A stretch of 28,503 nt of DNA, taken from contig JBMNHG010000008.1 of assembly GCA_050950285.1 (NCBI GenBank), forward strand, positions 806,001 through 834,503. The letters run 5' to 3'. Every line of letters starts with the position of its first letter. Position 1 is the first letter of the stretch. Positions 9,001 through 21,000 of the stretch are shown piece after piece. Source of the DNA: Kiritimatiellia bacterium (GTDB lineage Bacteria; Verrucomicrobiota; Kiritimatiellia; RFP12; JBMNHG01). The position numbers are program-made.

Positions 9001-12000
9001 TATTGCATCGATACGAATGGAAATCCAGTCAGCGCCCACCATGTCCACGGGCCTTTTTATACAACTGCTACATGGTGCAACGGCCCCAAGTTCCGTTGGG
9101 GAAGTCGGCTGACATGGGTCGATCTGTTGAACGGGGACAGGGGAATACTGCTTTGGGACGGAACCGTGCCCCTGACGACTTCGGTCAAGGACTATGAGGA
9201 GCTTTTGGAGATCGAACGCCGATTCGTCGAAGAGAACTATGGAACAAACGGCGTCGTGAAATTCACAGGCCAGGCATGGGTGTACTTCTATTATTGACCG
9301 TTGAAAGTGGGAGGTTGAAATGACGCAGTTGTCCATCGTTTTAGTTGTTCATGAATTTGGTGTGCAACGCAACCGGATGGCCACCCCGCATTTCATGGAC
9401 GCCCTCGGCAGGGAGACCAACACCGTCGTGACGGCGGTCGGCGAGCCCGGAAGCGCCGCCACCCCCGATTGCGGGACGCTCGGCTTCACGGCTTCCGAAA
9501 CGACGGCGTACCCCCACGGCACCGGCGACCACGTCGTCCATGTCGACCGGCGCGGGGTTCGCACGGTCACGACGCGCACGTCGCACGCCGACCGCGAGGA
9601 GAGCGTCACCCTGACGTTCTCGCCGGCGAACCCCGACGTTTGCGTCGTGGCGAGCACGAACATCGCCTACCGGAACGGGCGTTCCATCGCCATCCGAAGC
9701 TGGGACGGCGGCTGGACGCGCGAAACCTCGTGGAGCGACTACGCCGCCGACGGAACACGGCGCGCCTTCTCCGTCACCGAGGCGTCCGATTCACCGAACG
9801 CGGTCACGAATCAAATTTCGCACAGCGATTTCCTCGGGCGGACGGTGGCGACGCTGACGCCCGGCGCCGCAGGCGCGTGGCTCGTCACCTCGAACGCCTA
9901 CGACGGCGCGACCTCGCGCCTGGTTCGCACCGAAACCACCGGACAGCCTGCGACGACCTACCTCTACGACGAGCGCGGCGAGATGGCGGCGACGGTTCAA
10001 AGCGGCGTCGAGACCGCGTCGGAAACCCGCTACGAGAACATCGCCGGGGCATGGTGGCGGGTGGACGTCCGCAGCACGTCGCGCGAGGGCGTCACCAACG
10101 CCGTCGCGACGACCCGCCGGCAGTTGACGGGGCTTTCCAACGCCCTGCGGAGCCGCACGGTGAACACCGGCCCGAACGGCTCGACGACGACGGAATCGGG
10201 CAGCTACAACCCGCAGACTTGCGAACTGACGATGGTTCGCGCCACCGATGCGGCGACGCCATCCACCACCGTCTCGAAGTTCGGGCGTCCAATTCGTCGC
10301 GAATCGCTGCGGGAAACCGTTTACAACTACTTCGACCCGCTCGGGCGCGTTGCATACTCGGAAATGCGCGACCCTGAAACGGGCGTCTATTCCCATTTCC
10401 GCTGGTCGGGACTCGACGAGTCCGACAACGAGACCCACTACGGCATTTATTATTACGACGACGATCTGCACGTCACTGGATCGAGAACCTTCGACGCCTT
10501 CGGCCGCGAAACGTCCCGCACCGACGCCCTCGGCAACACCGTCACCAACACCTACGACGCCCTCGGGCGTCCGGTTGCCGCCACCGGCGCGGCCTACCCC
10601 GTGGCCTACGGGTACGACGCCGCCGGCCGCACGACCGCCCTCGCCACCGCCCGCGGCAACGCCGCCGGCTTCGCCGACCTCGCCGTCCAGCTTGCCGGAG
10701 GCGCGTCCCTCGCGTCCCTTGCGTCCCCTGCGTCCCTCGATCTCACCGCCTGGAACTACGATCATGCCACGGGACTGCTCACCAACAAGGTCTACGCCGA
10801 CGGATCAGCAGTGTCCTACGCGTACACCCCCGACGGCAGGCTTGCCGCCCGCGCCTGGGCGCGCGGACTCGCCACCGCCTACGCCTACAACCCCGACGGC
10901 TTGCTCACCGCCACCACCTACAGCGACAACACGCCGGACATCGTGCTGACATACGACCTCTTCCAGCGCCCTGCTTCCGCCTCCAACGCCGTCGCGCGAT
11001 ACGCCTACCAGAACAGCCACCTCGGCACCGCCACCAACGAGACGGCCACGGTCGGCGGCGACACCGCGACCCTGGCCCGCACCATGGACAACCGCCACCG
11101 CCTGGCGGAACTGCGCGTCGAGGATGCGCCACCCGTTCAATACGGCTACGATGCCGAGAACCGGCACTCCGCCGTCTCCAACACCGCCTTCCGCGCCACC
11201 TACGCCTACACCTCCGACGGCTGGGATGCGGGGTATTCGGTGGCCTTGACGAATGGCGTCGTACTTGCCCGCAACCTGACCCGCGACCCCTACCGCCGCA
11301 GTCTGGTAAAAGCCATCACCAACAGCGCCAGCGGCGTGCCGTACAATCCGCTGGCCTACACCTACGACCTCCTCGACCGCGTCACGTCACGAAACGCCGA
11401 CACCTTCGACTACAACGCCAGAAGCGAAGTCACATCCGCCATCATCCAGCCCGCCCACACCAACCGCTACGCCTTCGACAACATAGGCAGTGCGCCAAGC
11501 GAAGCTCGGCGCTTCTTGCGGGGTGGAAGTCCCCGCCGAGTAAGGACCAGCCATCCACTCGTACCGAGTGTTGGCACTATGGAAGAGGAGTCGAATCCGA
11601 ATGAAGTAGTGTAAGCGTACACAGGGAACTCCGCAGGCCGCAGGGAGGATGCACCCTCCCGAAGCGGTTCAGCCCCGTTAATTGATCATGCGCAGGGCGA
11701 CATGTTTGCCGACATGGAAGCCAGCAACAAGGACGCGCAACCGGCTTGCGTCCGGTGACTGCGCCGGGGTCTACGGCGCGCGGCATGCGGAGAGAGAAGC
11801 GAACGGGAACTTGGGAGACCCGCCGCCGTCCGCGTCCGCGAGGGCGCGGTAGCGGCCGCCGAGCCGGAAGGGAAGGCGGCGCGACGCGGCGGCGGGAGTC
11901 AGACCGCCCCATAGTACTCCGGGACGGGCGAGCCGGTCACACGGGGAAGGGGGCGGCGGGGCTGCGAAGCCCGCAAAGGAAACAGGAAAGATGGACACGA

Positions 12001-18000: not shown

Positions 18001-21000
18001 AGCTATGCGTGGGTGGTCGATGCGGACATCAAGGGCTTCTTCGAGCACGTCGATCACGACTGGATGCTCAGGATGCTGGAGCTTCGCATCGACGACAAGC
18101 CGTTTCTGCGGCTGGTGCGCAAATGGCTCAAGGCGGGGGTGCTCGAAACGGACGGACGGGTGCTGCATCCGACGGAGGGGACGCCCCAAGGCGGGGTGGT
18201 CTCGCCGGTGCTGGCGAACGTCTACCTGCACTACGCGCTGGATCTCTGGTTCGACCGCGTGGTCAGGAGGACGACGTCGGGCCGCTGTGTGATGCTGCGC
18301 TACGCCGACGACTTCGTGGTCGCCTTCGAGCGGCGCGAGGACGCGGAACGCTTCCTTGGGGAACTGCCCGGGCGACTGGGCAAGTTCGGCCTGGAGCTGT
18401 CGGGGGAGAAGACGCGGCTGGTGCGCTTCGAGCGGGGCAACCCGTCGGGCGACAACGGCGGCTTCGACTTCCTGGGGTTCCAGTACCACTGGGAGCGTAC
18501 GCGAAACGGACGCTGGAAGGTGCAGCGCCGGACGGCTCCGAGCCGTCTCCGGCGGTCGGTGGAACGCTTCGCCGAGTGGATCAAGGCCAACCGGGGCGAA
18601 CGCCTGCCCGTTCTCATGGAACGGCTGGGGCGCAAGCTCGCGGGGTACTGGCAGTACTACGGCGTGACGGGCAACGGGCGCAGCCTGTGCAAGTTCTGGA
18701 GGCAGGTGGTGGCTGGGCTCTACAAGTGGCTCAACCGCAGAAGCCAGAAGCGGGGCTTGACCTGGGTCCGTCTCAATGCGATCCTCAAGCGCCACGGGGT
18801 GCCGGGACCGCGGATCACCGAGAGCGGGCAGATGCTGTTTTCCTTCATGGGGGCGCGTTGAAGACCGAGTGCAAAGCGAGCAGTCCCGAAGAGCCCGGTG
18901 CGGGAATTCCGCACGCCGGGATCCGTGCGGGGGGCGCCCGGCAACGGGCGTCCCTACCGCGATTCCTCGTCCTCGAGACCGCCGGAAGAGTCGACAGGTG
19001 TCGATAGGTATCGACAGGTATCGACGGGAACGATAGATTCGATCAAGCCCACAGTGTGGCGCGGACATTCCTGTCTGCGCGGGTAGGCAAGCGTCGGCTT
19101 GCCTGCGGCCCCGCGGACGAGCAGACGCTCGTCCCTCCCGTGGCTGCGGCCTTGGCGCTTAGCTTGGCACCCTGCGTGCGGCTAGCCGGGACGGCGTCGC
19201 CCCACCACGCTGTCGCGCCGGCGTATCGGCTTTTCGCGTATTTCGCGGTTAAATAAGAGCCCCTTTGACGTTTCCGGCGCCTTGTCATTTTCCTCATCTG
19301 CGCGGGCCAGGTCCCGCGGTAGAAAGCGCGGCCGGGTCCGCGCACTCAAAACCGCTTGCGCACGTAGTGCGCCACGCGGGGTGACCGCACAAGCCGTATT
19401 TGCATCAGCACCAACACCTTGCCTGGCATACGTGGCGTCCCCGCCGCGTGGCCACCCCATCCCGCACGCGGCGGAGTCGCCGCGTCGATCATCCCCCCTT
19501 TTACACTCTTCGATCATACGACTGAGTCGTATGATCAACATGCGAGAGGAAAAGAGGGCAGGCATAGCCAACTGGCGGCACAGTACCCCGCGTGCGGCTA
19601 GCCGGGATCCTACTTCGCTAAAGCTTCGTAGGACAAGCGGCGTCGCCCTGTGCTGGCGCGCTTTTGCAAGTTCACCCCAAACACTCGACCCCCATCGACC
19701 CCCATCGACCCCAGGCGACCCCCGTCGACCCCCATCGAAGCTTGCAATCAACGCCCTCGACGCTCGTCGCCACTGCCTGCTGCCTCCCCTCCCCCCGCCA
19801 CGCACCAAAACCAGCGCCTTCCCCGGCATTACCGCTAACCAAAACAATCATGCAATCATGGAATCCTGTCAAAAAAATACCCGTCGCAGCATCCGCGTTG
19901 CGAATGATTCCGCGCGAAGCATTCCGCGCCATCCGCGAAATCCGTAGCTGAAAACCAGTCGCAGCCACCGCATCGCGAATGAGCCAGCGCGAAACTCCCC
20001 CTACCTCATCCGCCCCGCACCGAAACCAACGCCATCCCCGCCTTACCACCTAAAAGAACAATCATGCAATCCTGTAATCCTGCTAATATGCGCCCGCGCA
20101 GCGGGAAATCCTGTCAAAAAAATCACCAGTCGCAGCTCCGGCAGCGCGAATGATCCGGCGCGAAGCATTCCGCGCCATCCGCGAAATCGGTGATTATGGC
20201 GGTGACGATGAAATACGGAAGAATTGTCTGGGCTGCCCTGCGGGCATGGCGACGGAGGCTTCATACAGGAAAACCCCATTCTCTTCACCAGTTTCCTGGA
20301 TCGTTGCATCCGCAACGCGCCAAACCGGATCGTTGAGGTCGTCTTTCGTGTACACAAGATAGGGGATTCCGCGCTCTCCCCAGAAAGAGAACTTGAATGT
20401 AATGCCGTCGGCGGATGTGGAAACCATATCCGGCGCAACGACCGGCATGGGGACATCGCCAATCCAAACGATATCATCAACCCATGCTGCGTCCGTGCTA
20501 CTGGCCACCGACCCGTTCTTGACGTACTCCCATCGCAATACGTTGGTAACACCTGCGTTCTCAACCCTGTTCGATACCCATGTCCATGGGGTCTTGGTGC
20601 CGGAGATCGAGGAAACCAGCACCCCATTTACAAGAAACCGCAGGTGATCGTTAACTTCGCTGACAGTTTTCCACCAGAATGTGATGGAACCGCTGCCATA
20701 TACCTCTGTTTCGAAAGCTGTAAAACCGTTGTCGGGCACTACACCGGAGCCCCCCAGCTTGACAGCCGCATTCCCCGAGGGCGCACCCGCCGCTGTATCG
20801 GCGGAAATGCCGTTCTCGATGCCGCTTTGGGTGTAGGTGCGCCCATAGGAACCGGAGACACGCGCGATCGAATCGCGGTAGGTGGCGGTCAGGGTGCTGG
20901 CCGCTGTCGGCATGGTCAGTGTCGTTGTGCTAGACGAGGCGTCCTCAAGGAATGCCGCTGCGTCGCCGGTCCAGGCCGCGAATTCCATGTAGAGCGGATC

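Follow-up and report, generated by a model that had tools for sequence, protein, structure and literature searches.

The DNA analysed here, a window of 28,503 nucleotides from the genome of a Kiritimatiellia bacterium, holds three group II introns of class E at 11490-13422 (1933 nt), 15093-17031 (1939 nt) and 17032-18963 (1932 nt). We consider it probable that they represent a mobile, endonuclease-less lineage that lives on multicopy DNA, targets the YD repeats of Rhs toxin genes and joins Rhs modules to one another through recombination between its copies. Positions refer to the window (position 1 is contig position 806,001) unless prefixed with C2, C3 and so on, which marks contig positions; the contig of the window is C8. 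The features are:

9-7248 (+), full-length (primary) Rhs gene with a Tle1-like phospholipase C-terminal domain (PF09994, TIGR03696)
9320-11489 (+), orphan Rhs module, exon 1, 728 open codons, without delivery head, ending ...RYAFDNIG plus A (site A)
11477-11489 (+), exon end pairing with copy 1: IBS2 GACAAC (11477-11482) and IBS1 TAGGCA (11484-11489)
11490-13422 (+), intron copy 1 (C8a), class E, between an exon 1 of site-A type and an exon 2 of site-B type
11681-11687 (+), EBS2 loop AUUG(A)UC of copy 1, pairing with exon -8..-13 with one bulged base in a post-hoc model
11707-11712 (+), EBS1 UGCCGA of copy 1 in the loop of an AUGU/ACAU hairpin, 5/6 pairs with TAGGCA
13423-14366 (+), exon 2, 313 codons: site-B Rhs core end (TIGR03696, by profile match) plus C-terminal domain
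14353-14688 (+), candidate immunity gene, a small ORF that overlaps the stop codon of the toxin
14689-15092 (+), second orphan Rhs fragment, ending ...RYAYDNIG plus A (site A variant, IBS1 TTGGTA)
15093-17031 (+), intron copy 2 (C8b), 96.6% alike
15314-15319 (+), EBS1 UGCCGA of copy 2, 6/6 pairs including two G-U with exon end TTGGTA
17032-18963 (+), intron copy 3 (C8c), head to tail after copy 2
17249-17254 (+), EBS1 UGCCUA of copy 3, site-A type, from the covariation alignment
17533-18861 (+), intact RT/maturase of copy 3, 442 aa, YADD, without endonuclease domain (TIGR04416; groups with class E)
18891-18963 (+), putative domain V (about 18891-18923, AGC triad) and domain VI (about 18926-18961, unpaired A at -8), from the fold
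18964-18977 (+), non-Rhs 3' flank starting TCCTCG, in register with a (CTCGTC)n site

All three window introns begin with GTGCG and end with CCGCGAT. With the Rfam ribozyme profile RF02005 (gathering score 49) they scored 96.9-105.6 bits and thus have a group II Domain I-IV structure; the 5' GUGYG and 3' AY ends, the domain V triad and the bulged A of domain VI are all present. The 3' end of copy 3 (18862-18963) is predicted to fold with a z of -2.99, and the segments within 18891-18963 are what we take to be domains V and VI. Ten intron copies and one fragment were found in the whole genome. The coordinates and lengths given in the preliminary description proved correct, and all nine 5' ends that it listed exist, eight of them full length, but the copy at C3:579713 that it called cut is a complete ORF-less derivative of 697 nt ending at 580409. 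The tenth copy is truncated by the end of contig C12, and the additional 5'-truncated fragment lies at C3:185854.

A domain search of the 442-aa protein returned RVT_1 and a weak GIIM match only. The RT frame of copy 1 (11991-13320) is broken by one extra G within a G run and that of copy 2 carries a 1-nt insertion; both insertions may be assembly errors. Among the six intact RT copies, 29 of 41 variable codons differ synonymously. By blastp the RT was 40-44% identical (294-323 bits) to class E references, compared with 31-34% (134-183 bits) for D, F, g1 and C, and FastTree placed it in one clade with class E (support 0.85), all within a small reference set of two E, one D, one F, one g1 and one C sequence labeled according to Table_3 of PMC8919778. 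No described class E member in the plasmid collection exceeded 45% identity to this RT. Membership of class C (IIC), whose introns home to terminators and insert after a stem-loop, was rejected, given 31.8% identity to the class C reference and sites that are coding motifs with a 6-nt IBS1.

The host genes match the Rhs profiles TIGR01643, TIGR03696, PF05593 and PF09994, have variable C-terminal ends and are followed by a small gene. In the window, the position of the small ORF at 14353-14688 suggests an immunity gene; neither this ORF nor the C-terminal domain of exon 2 (13423-14366) matches a known family. Insertion occurs in phase 1 after ...DNIG or ...DNNG, as had been described. Instead of the two sites proposed, we found three YD sites and one toxin-tail site: exon 2 at C2:690204 belongs to site C (YDLDG^N, with ^ marking the insertion point), and exon 2 in C12 is of the YDKKG^N type, within a toxin tail. 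Removal of the intron had been said to restore frames of 350-1040 codons, which holds for the clean cases (40+313, 136+464, 279+333 and 728+313 codons, summed from exon frames translated one by one) but not for C6 and C7, where exon 2 leaves the frame past the joint. The 24 empty copies of site A followed by NALW(A/T)SLN were recovered along with one variant; for site B, our looser rule gave 29 B-like sites rather than 24.

The full-length Rhs gene at 9-7248 is frameshifted near 3100-3180, and its YD sites at 5725, 5851 (site C) and 6187 (site B) are all without intron. In the ten full-length Rhs genes of the genome, none of 16 A/B sites was occupied, compared with 8 of 51 elsewhere (Fisher p=0.18), where full-length-gene sites were taken as A/B sites at most 4.3 kb from 11 N-terminal heads and C7 and C12 were left out because of contig ends. 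The claim that the intron resides in working toxin genes was thus not borne out, nor did the interrupted copies prove to be full-length, deliverable toxin genes. The introns appear to sit mainly in orphan Rhs modules, a trend that is not significant at these counts. Contig C12 is collinear with C3:239.8-260 kb, and the intron is present in C12 at a site that is empty in C3.

A simple search for 6-7-nt pairings had earlier found no EBS/IBS match, but such a pairing does exist. EBS1 lies at intron nt 218-223. Across its 17 distinct variants, 94 of 102 positions can pair with the end of the exon (mean of the permutations 45.3, sd 5.4; 0/20000 permutations reached 94), and an unbiased scan of all alignment columns against exon offsets gave nt 218 versus exon -5..-1 the top rank. 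For copy 3, a hand count gave 5/6 pairs between EBS1 and the exon end TTGGTA. For EBS2, with a bulge allowed, the 18 distinct loops gave 73 paired positions out of 108 (51.4 after permutation, sd 4.4; reached in 0/20000), under a post-hoc bulge model set once the data had been seen; the plain scan ranks EBS2 only 15th, and the fit is poor in C2a (3/6), C8b (0/6) and the related introns L036 (2/6), L065 (3/6) and L032 (3/6). EBS2 thus appears weaker than EBS1 and seems to read the codons upstream. For an EBS3-IBS3 pair of the IIB type, which would involve the first base of the 3' exon, no covarying column was found among 17 introns, 13 of which have A at +1. Because EBS1 pairs with the exon end and EBS2 reads the upstream codons, the target would be DNA encoding (Y/F)DxxG^N.

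Of 28 strict A-type targets in the genome, 27 lie at Rhs site A, and three are occupied; the UUCCGU-type target occurs three times, always at Rhs site B, with two occupied. Once G-U pairs and a single mismatch are admitted, more than 1000 places in the genome satisfy the EBS rules, so that specificity depends on the scoring. The proposal that the intron homes on YD-repeat DNA is supported by the covariation of EBS1 and EBS2 with the exon and by the location of 27 of the 28 strict targets at site A. Since only three of these 27 perfect targets are filled, homing would be slow or insertions would be purged.

In other datasets, relatives are inserted at these Rhs sites as well as at similar sequences outside Rhs, and sister introns are retargeted to REP-like repeats and are also found in non-Rhs genes. 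In close metagenome copies (RT or DNA 89% or more), all eight 5' exons end in GG(C/G)A, and 6 of the 10 close-clade 3' exons scanned pass TIGR03696. A nearly identical toxin gene carries the intron at site B in one dataset and at site C in another (L064 and L073). A head-to-tail pair of relatives is also present in G116 (L146). Three chimeras from fragmented metagenome assemblies (L068, L070 and L071) resemble misjoins.

We propose that EBS1 would read GGN-A, that is the Gly codon and the first base of the Asn codon, together with the two preceding bases, while EBS2 would read the Asp codon and the one after it. The intron would home directly behind the first base of the Asn codon in the Rhs YD-repeat consensus (Y/F)DxxG^N, and all Rhs insertions would automatically be in phase 1, since every target has the same codon layout. 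Point changes in EBS1 and EBS2 may retune copies to DNIG, DNNG, DADG and DLDG repeats, and further EBS changes may redirect sisters to REP-like repeats. Copies would pile up in orphan modules, presumably because interruption there costs little. Two copies in one tandem array would form 1.9-kb direct repeats, 97-99% identical, and recombination between them would delete the intervening DNA, so that the exon 1 and exon 2 thus brought together come from different modules, with the resulting joints usually in frame. The identity and class of the introns, the EBS1 covariation, the sites, the mismatched joints and the mosaicism can be read directly from the sequence; homing and splicing activity, recombination as the origin of the joints and the preference for orphan modules we infer. 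Among contigs of metatranscriptome runs aligned to the locus of copy 1, none joined 11489 to 13423.

The flanks do not match at five of eight intron loci, and the joint lies exactly at the intron, with assembly error a possible cause. The joints are of the types A>B, B>A, A>C, B>toxin tail and A>repeat; four of the five fit deletion between two introns of one Rhs array. At window copy 1 (A>B), the missing stretch measures 1925-1937 nt in two intron-free paralogous arrays, oddly near the intron length of 1933. At C2:688273 (A>C), the Tle1-like toxin end of one Rhs sub-family stands behind the exon of another, and a partner intron is presumed; exon 2 at C2:690204 is 93.8% identical to its nearest paralogue. 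Several joints depart from what had been expected. The last 3' flank of the window is not Rhs, so the final joint leaves Rhs altogether; the (CTCGTC)n site with which that flank is in register is occupied by sister introns with EBS1 CGAGGA. The frame is not always kept, the joint at C3:580409 entering a toxin tail out of frame. The C6 joint had been taken for a tandem duplication, but its two middle exons are just 87.6% alike and two different modules were therefore joined.

The intron copies are also mosaic: 294 of 666 informative site pairs are incompatible (Rm 13), and 107 of 253 (Rm 8) among the six closest copies, compared with 119 of 1431 in a control IS of 2 kb with 11 copies. A rival reading accepts the intron and its YD targeting but ascribes the joints and mosaics to faulty assembly or polishing over a 1.9-kb repeat in a mixed-strain metagenome; it seems improbable to us. 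Haplotypes are indeed mixed in the assembly where Rhs loci lie (C12, C5), and part of the mosaicism and of the joints could therefore be an artefact of the consensus. In keeping with such errors, Rhs arrays are the places where contigs C5, C12 and C7 are broken or duplicated, 1-nt frameshifts lie in repeats (base 16229 of copy 2 is missing from contigs of run X1), misjoin-like chimeras (L068, L070, L071) occur in fragmented metagenomes, and the stretch missing at the A>B joint is about one intron long. However, in IS copies of the same length the target duplications still agree at 11 of the 13 distinct loci (Fisher p=0.056), and one of the two mismatches recurs in two haplotype contigs, which suggests that the assembly resolves 2-kb repeats. 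Moreover, the introns are far more mosaic than the IS copies, and the joints at window 18964, C3:580409 and C2:690204 have no native A- or B-type partner left elsewhere in the assembly, which speaks against a simple swap, since that would produce such partners. Flank swapping via intron copies, as first proposed, thus gains indirect support from the five mismatched loci, the mosaic copies and the IS control, with recombination as the presumed cause.

The same mosaicism, so far above that of the IS, is also what an RNA or cDNA route predicts, and the mismatched flanks might stem from RT-linked events (template switching, cDNA of unspliced precursors, intron circles) instead of RecA-type deletion. 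A DNA circle could give the head-to-tail pair, and circularisation and trans-splicing are known for Ll.LtrB (PMC7947834). We nevertheless regard this origin as very unlikely: the joints mostly fit simple tandem-array deletions, with intron-free paralogues in the same genome, and re-homing explains the tandem, copies 2 and 3 pairing 6/6 and 5/6 with TTGGTA. The pair is most simply a second homing ahead of a resident copy, because IBS1 and IBS2 survive insertion.

A further question is whether the joints serve the host. We think it rather improbable that the intron is a domesticated joint, spliced efficiently and kept since recombination or trans-splicing yields new functional Rhs-toxin combinations across repeats and sub-families whose DNA is too dissimilar for direct recombination. 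Four of the five mismatched joints swap the downstream module and three keep the Rhs frame, the Tle1-like end at C2:688273 is combined with an exon of another sub-family, the EBS variants fit several different YD repeats, and functional relaxase chimeras of this kind are shown in PMC7947834. On the other hand, all 16 sites in full-length genes are empty, and a search of the 54 empty A and B-like sites turned up no intron-free joint of the type A>B, B>A or A>C. One of the joints breaks the frame, another exits Rhs, and about 40-160 codons of the repeat shell are lost or gained at mismatched joints. Sisters are equally at home in REP-like repeats and non-Rhs genes, and the Rhs modules, 85-96% alike in DNA, could recombine without an intron. 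In the explanation that we favour, shuffling is most likely a side effect through which toxin ends can be displaced by one more route, and not a selected function. The boldest reading, which we hold to be unlikely, makes the class E lineage a portable, retargetable recombination joint of Rhs arrays: with EBS1 and EBS2 tuned to different YD repeats in one codon phase, toxin-immunity modules would be exchanged between non-equivalent repeats and sub-families, perhaps also by trans-splicing of RNA, and the intron spliced out, giving working toxins with new ends in a eukaryote-like exon shuffling of a bacterial weapon.

Exon shuffling at group II intron sites is not a new principle, being described already in PMC7947834 and PMC2882425. 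Like known class E introns (NZ_CP014310 and NZ_CP021830, labelled E by Miura et al., 2022, PMC8919778; Cl.be.I2, PMC3753933), the present ones have an RT/maturase without endonuclease, a strong EBS1 and a probable, weaker EBS2; unlike them, they target Rhs YD-repeat coding DNA, with several retuned variants in one genome. The TeI introns of Thermosynechococcus elongatus likewise form EBS-diverged families with different targets and ORF-less derivatives, and the TeI4f/4g pair was interpreted by Mohr et al. (2010, PMC2882425) as two introns that had recombined homologously and so shuffled their exons; those lie mostly in intergenic regions or in IS and intron ORFs, whereas here the repeats of one protein family are hit in one phase, with mismatched flanks at 5/8 loci. 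Ll.LtrB and Ef.PcfG also occupy a conserved coding motif of a gene family, the relaxases, where natural chimeric genes are jointed at the intron site and shuffling at the DNA and RNA level was proposed (LaRoche-Johnston et al., 2020, PMC7947834). That system concerns one site in orthologous genes with function established by experiment, while ours concerns several non-equivalent repeat sites in orphan modules. The arrangement of a full-length rhs gene followed by orphan toxin/immunity modules resembles that of Poole et al. (2011), in whose work recombination was proposed to load new rhs toxin ends with deletion of the intervening DNA (PMC3150448); there the crossover falls in conserved coding DNA, whereas here the intron would supply extra homology, even between non-equivalent repeats.

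In bacteria, group II introns for the most part keep out of coding genes or reside in mobile elements (PMC12584367), and we found no Rhs or YD coding DNA in print as their host. The landing field of this lineage would be the repeated codons of a fast-evolving protein family, and even if the intron were merely a parasite of silent orphan modules, this would be a target class that we have not found described. The natural retargeting of EBS1 and EBS2 among the repeats of one genome offers a ready set for working out class E target rules. If the joints hold in raw reads, the locus would be a small natural system for testing whether introns of one phase shuffle bacterial protein modules and would give Rhs systems an extra route of toxin-end displacement for which the toxin genes need share no homology.

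Three group II introns lie in the window where the preliminary description had placed them, and all three reach about twice the gathering score of the Rfam model named here:

11490-13422, group II intron copy 1 (C8a), GTGCG...CCGCGAT, Rfam group-II-D1D4-6
15093-17031, group II intron copy 2 (C8b), GTGCG...CCGCGAT, Rfam group-II-D1D4-6
17032-18963, group II intron copy 3 (C8c), GTGCG...CCGCGAT, Rfam group-II-D1D4-6

The folded 3' end of the intron shows what we take to be domain V, which contains an AGC triad, followed by domain VI, in which the A at -8 is unpaired. Copy 3 encodes an intact RT/maturase of 442 aa (TIGR04416) without an endonuclease domain, and the ORFs of copies 1 and 2 carry a 1-nt insertion each. 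The 4.05-Mb genome (12 contigs) holds eight full copies, an ORF-less derivative of 697 nt (C3:579713-580409, termed C3b) that had previously been taken for a cut copy, one copy broken by the end of contig C12 and one 5'-truncated fragment. With these additions and with further insertion sites, the initial observation was confirmed and extended, and its interpretation gained partial support. Another ORF-less derivative is present in a second genome (L190:1150-1536, G040:C96); in both, the break falls at intron nt 558, some 19 codons past the ORF start, and domains V-VI are retained. The intron is a member of class E. When compared by BLAST with references labelled according to rows of Table_3 in the supplement of Miura et al. 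2022 (PMC8919778), its RT had 44% and 40% identity with two class E proteins and 31-34% with class D, F, g1 and C references (one each), and it shares one clade with class E (support 0.85; FastTree with 37 rows, a small reference set).

Each Rhs module presents its YD motifs in the order A (FDNIG/N), C (YDLDG/N) and B (YDNNG/N), the slash marking the insertion point. Site C lies 117-135 nt past A, site B 333-339 nt later and the core DP motif 212 nt past B. Insertion had been described at two sites, of which both A and B were found again, but they are not the only ones: the exon 2 behind the copy ending at C2:690204 is site C, and that of the C12 copy begins at YDKKG/N inside a toxin tail. The region C3:239.8-260 kb is collinear with this contig (97-100%) and has no intron at the corresponding position; the two therefore form a filled/empty pair.

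The Rfam alignment together with covariation located the exon-binding element in a hairpin at intron nt 212-228, the loop of which differs among copies; a minimum free energy fold of the EBS region alone was no better than those of shuffled sequences. EBS1 corresponds to nt 218-223. In the copies at C2:688273 (C2b) and on C7 it reads UGCCUA and forms all six pairs with the exon end TAGGCA, and UUCCGU of the ORF-less C3b pairs with ACGGAA at 6/6 positions, a perfect match of its own which suggests that this copy was mobilised in trans. UGCCGA, present in C3:573935 (C3a), C6 and window copies 1 and 2, forms 5, 4, 5 and 6 of six pairs, respectively, and UGCCGU at C2:684460 (C2a) forms five of six. 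Over 26 introns including those of relatives, 141 of 156 EBS1-IBS1 positions were paired (permuted, 81), and for the 17 EBS1 sequences that differ from one another 94 of 102 (permuted, 45.3, sd 5.4; none of 20000 permutations reached the observed value), the fragment, tandem copy 3 and two relatives with too little exon (L069 and L090) being left out. This pairing ranked first in a scan of every column against every exon offset. The earlier failure to find an EBS/IBS pairing is thereby overturned.

The putative EBS2 loop, nt 190-196, covaries with exon positions -8 to -13 given one bulged base. AUUG(A)UC pairs with GAYAAY (Asp-Asn), AGCG(A)UC with GACGCT (Asp-Ala; relatives L066/L067) and AAAGC(A)UC with a repeat in relative L175. 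The score was 73/108 over 18 loops compared with 51.4 upon permutation, the bulge model having been set post hoc, and three loci added after the model was set formed 6, 3 and 4 of six pairs. For class E/F introns, PMC3753933 describes EBS2 as dispensable for splicing and possibly required in homing. No covarying position for EBS3 emerged from the scan, for which some +1 positions were estimated, and inspection by eye revealed no pair at -14 of the EBS2a kind described in PMC8643678.

Strict targets of the UGCCUA variant number 28 in the genome (both strands), 27 of which are Rhs site A, and those of the UUCCGU variant number three, all at site B; EBS rules allowing G-U and one mismatch are far looser (1391 sites). 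Because the target ends GGN-A, all Rhs insertions share the same phase, and selection for frame is not needed. Only 3 of the 27 perfect site-A targets are occupied. The proposal that the intron lives in toxin genes was not sustained for full-length ones: in the ten Rhs genes bearing an N-terminal head, 0/16 A/B sites are filled versus 8/51 elsewhere (p=0.18), C7 not being placeable as primary (full-length) or orphan (headless) since it lies 870 nt from a contig end. In the window, the primary gene with the Tle1-like phospholipase end is empty and the introns reside in the orphans that follow. The interval from the primary Rhs immunity candidate to the first orphan contains a GDSL/SGNH hydrolase gene (7733-8449) and a WG-repeat lipoprotein-like gene (8470-9297), possibly the remnant of a further toxin-immunity module. 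An Atlas search with the exon-2 C-terminal domain gave no informative match (best score 0.75), and a promoter scan returned consensus matches only. Elsewhere in the window, 20194-23988 (-) and 25033-25707 (-) encode a large protein with 23-aa leucine-rich-like repeats, the 5' part of which appears split off by an IS630-like element (23990-25230), and an Acido-Lenti-1 RNA match is found at 25777-25821 (Rfam RF01687, 45.2 bits).

Copies 2 and 3 stand head to tail, an arrangement also seen in a pair of relatives in G116; a literature search on head-to-tail introns brought up no title on such an arrangement. EBS1 of copy 3 does not pair with the end of the preceding intron (2/6); with the Rhs exon end TTGGTA it forms 5/6 (hand count) and EBS1 of copy 2 forms 6/6. 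As IBS1 and IBS2 would be intact after homing, a second intron could enter ahead of the resident one; alternatively, a circular copy may have integrated.

Both flanks are available for eight loci when the tandem is counted once. At three of them the flanks correspond (B>B at C2a and at C3a, A>A at C7). The other five are mismatched: A>B at window copy 1, B>A at C6, A>C at C2b, B>toxin tail at C3b and A>repeat at the window tandem. Over its full length, the window segment between copies 1 and 2 resembles the intron-free B-to-A segment C8:744046-742373 (84.5% alike), so that the window reads as the same array from which the part between A and the B of the following module has been removed. C6 had been interpreted as a duplication; a tandem duplication is ruled out because the two middle exons are just 87.6% alike, which indicates two joined modules, none of them duplicated. 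Exon 2 of C2b is a Tle1-type end, 93.8% alike to the window primary gene from site C onward and placed behind an exon of the other Rhs sub-family, and the neighbouring C2a has EBS sequences ideal for YDADG/N, not for its own exon. The last 3' flank in the window starts TCCTCG, the exact 3' exon register of sister introns with EBS1 CGAGGA. The introns themselves are mosaic: 294 of 666 informative pairs were incompatible (for the six closest copies alone, 107 of 253), and 119 of 1431 in an 11-copy 2-kb IS used as control. We consider it improbable that the intron is a domesticated shuffling device. No intron-free joint of mismatched type occurs at any of 54 empty sites. Mismatched joints and mosaic copies speak indirectly for the flank swapping proposed in the preliminary description; the proposed preservation of frame agrees with the phase 1 of all Rhs insertions and fails at C3b, where crossing the joint shifts the reading frame relative to the toxin tail entered.

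That the mismatched joints are artefacts of assembly is unlikely, even though they rest on assembled contigs, Rhs arrays are where haplotype contigs and 1-nt errors concentrate, and the stretch absent at the window A>B joint measures 1925-1937 nt in paralogues, nearly the intron length of 1933 nt. Against an artefact, two IS families have matching target duplications at 11 of their 13 distinct loci (families of 1.49 kb, 1.72 kb and IS630 were omitted, their ends not being found or the duplication being 2 bp), which argues that the assembly is usually right across 2-kb repeats; mismatches affect 5/8 intron loci against 2/13 IS loci (p=0.056). Chimeric flanks of relatives L065, L068, L070 and L071, from fragmented metagenome assemblies, were not counted as evidence of recombination. 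The A-to-next-B distance is 1937 and 1925 nt in the intron-free arrays C8:745983-744046 and C2:240939-242864, respectively, a coincidence with the intron length. Short contigs C5 and C12 are alternative haplotypes of the Rhs arrays on C6/C8 and C3, and these arrays vary in IS and intron content within the sampled population. The 2-kb IS, which we presume to be IS1634-like, occupies 25922-27950 in the window (C8:831922-833950) and has 6-bp target duplications at 8 of its 11 copies; its flanks are mismatched at the window copy and one other locus (C3:242234, C12:14510), i.e. IS-mediated rearrangements. Among Logan contigs from three DNA runs and one RNA run none spans an intron, and the contig matches listed include no 11489-13423 joint, neither of which bears on splicing. 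At 11489, the loose contig end seen in runs X2 and X4 comes from paralogues whose site A is simply empty, and X1 contigs carry an identical exon-2 cassette (13567-14745) without the upstream joint. The runs in which the window stretch occurs are landfill and digester metagenomes, and the one with the best match may be the sample from which the assembly came.

Named related loci belong to Kiritimatiellia/Lentisphaerae MAGs. Of 60 genomes sampled from the order, three contain close RT relatives (83-91%) and a fourth has a 78% fragment; close relatives also occur on about 15 metagenome contigs. The same-genus genome G001 (92% complete) and viral contigs gave no intron match. In the closest group, GG(C/G)A terminates all eight 5' exons, of which three are of YD type (L067, L071 and L132, with a family match in L071 only), two are ambiguous, and three are clearly non-Rhs: L066 (no family), L068 (DUF4838) and L070 (IS66). 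Since these three share the DNA end, Rhs-specific recognition is ruled out. The close clade has 15 different 3' flanks. Ten were run against NCBIfam, the other five being non-Rhs by eye, and six of the ten passed the Rhs core model (L064, L065, L067, L073, L101 and L185); the L070 flank, 24 aa long, contains the site-B motif. L064 and L073 have nearly identical toxin genes with the intron at B and at C, respectively. The L068 3' exon (from 2488) reads N-VFEWCWD, presumably the formylglycine-generating-enzyme (SUMF1) motif YDMxG/N, although the 33-aa piece has no family match; SUMF1-motif genes at C2:129787, C3:846661 and C11:15270 present the same DNA target and are without intron in this genome.

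Sister introns occupy short repeats: those with EBS1 CGAGGA sit in (CTCGTC)n, those with UGGGGU a GGGACAGGCCCC-type palindrome and those with UGCCGA a repeat seen at 4/7 5' ends in G034. Three different short REP-like repeats house the sister introns L173, L175, L177, L179 and L181-L183 in G034 and L174, L176, L178 and L180 in G040; L176 directly follows an Rhs core that is truncated. Another clade (L036:1068-2991, L090:2241; 62-63% RT identity) sits in an Rhs-associated core at YGYRY/Y, also in phase 1, and apparently reached Rhs DNA independently, in a second such move; no further copy was present in the 67 other genomes searched from that family (1/68 positive).

Published accounts report, for T. 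elongatus, introns with diverged EBS sequences, derivatives lacking the ORF and a recombination between two introns that shuffled exons (PMC2882425), chimeric relaxase genes and functional chimeric proteins for Ll.LtrB (PMC7947834) and, as standing model for Rhs/CDI arrays, orphan toxin ends loaded by recombination (PMC3150448). In the open-access literature we met no account of group II introns within Rhs/YD coding repeats. The intron described here would work like the TeI and Ll.LtrB introns; what is new is the Rhs/YD target class and how often flanks are swapped. Most probably we are dealing with a selfish, retargetable intron residing in orphan Rhs modules, the copies of which recombine as a by-product. 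Its Rhs, non-Rhs and repeat sites mark the lineage as a colonist of multicopy DNA, for which YD-repeat codons are one recurrent niche.
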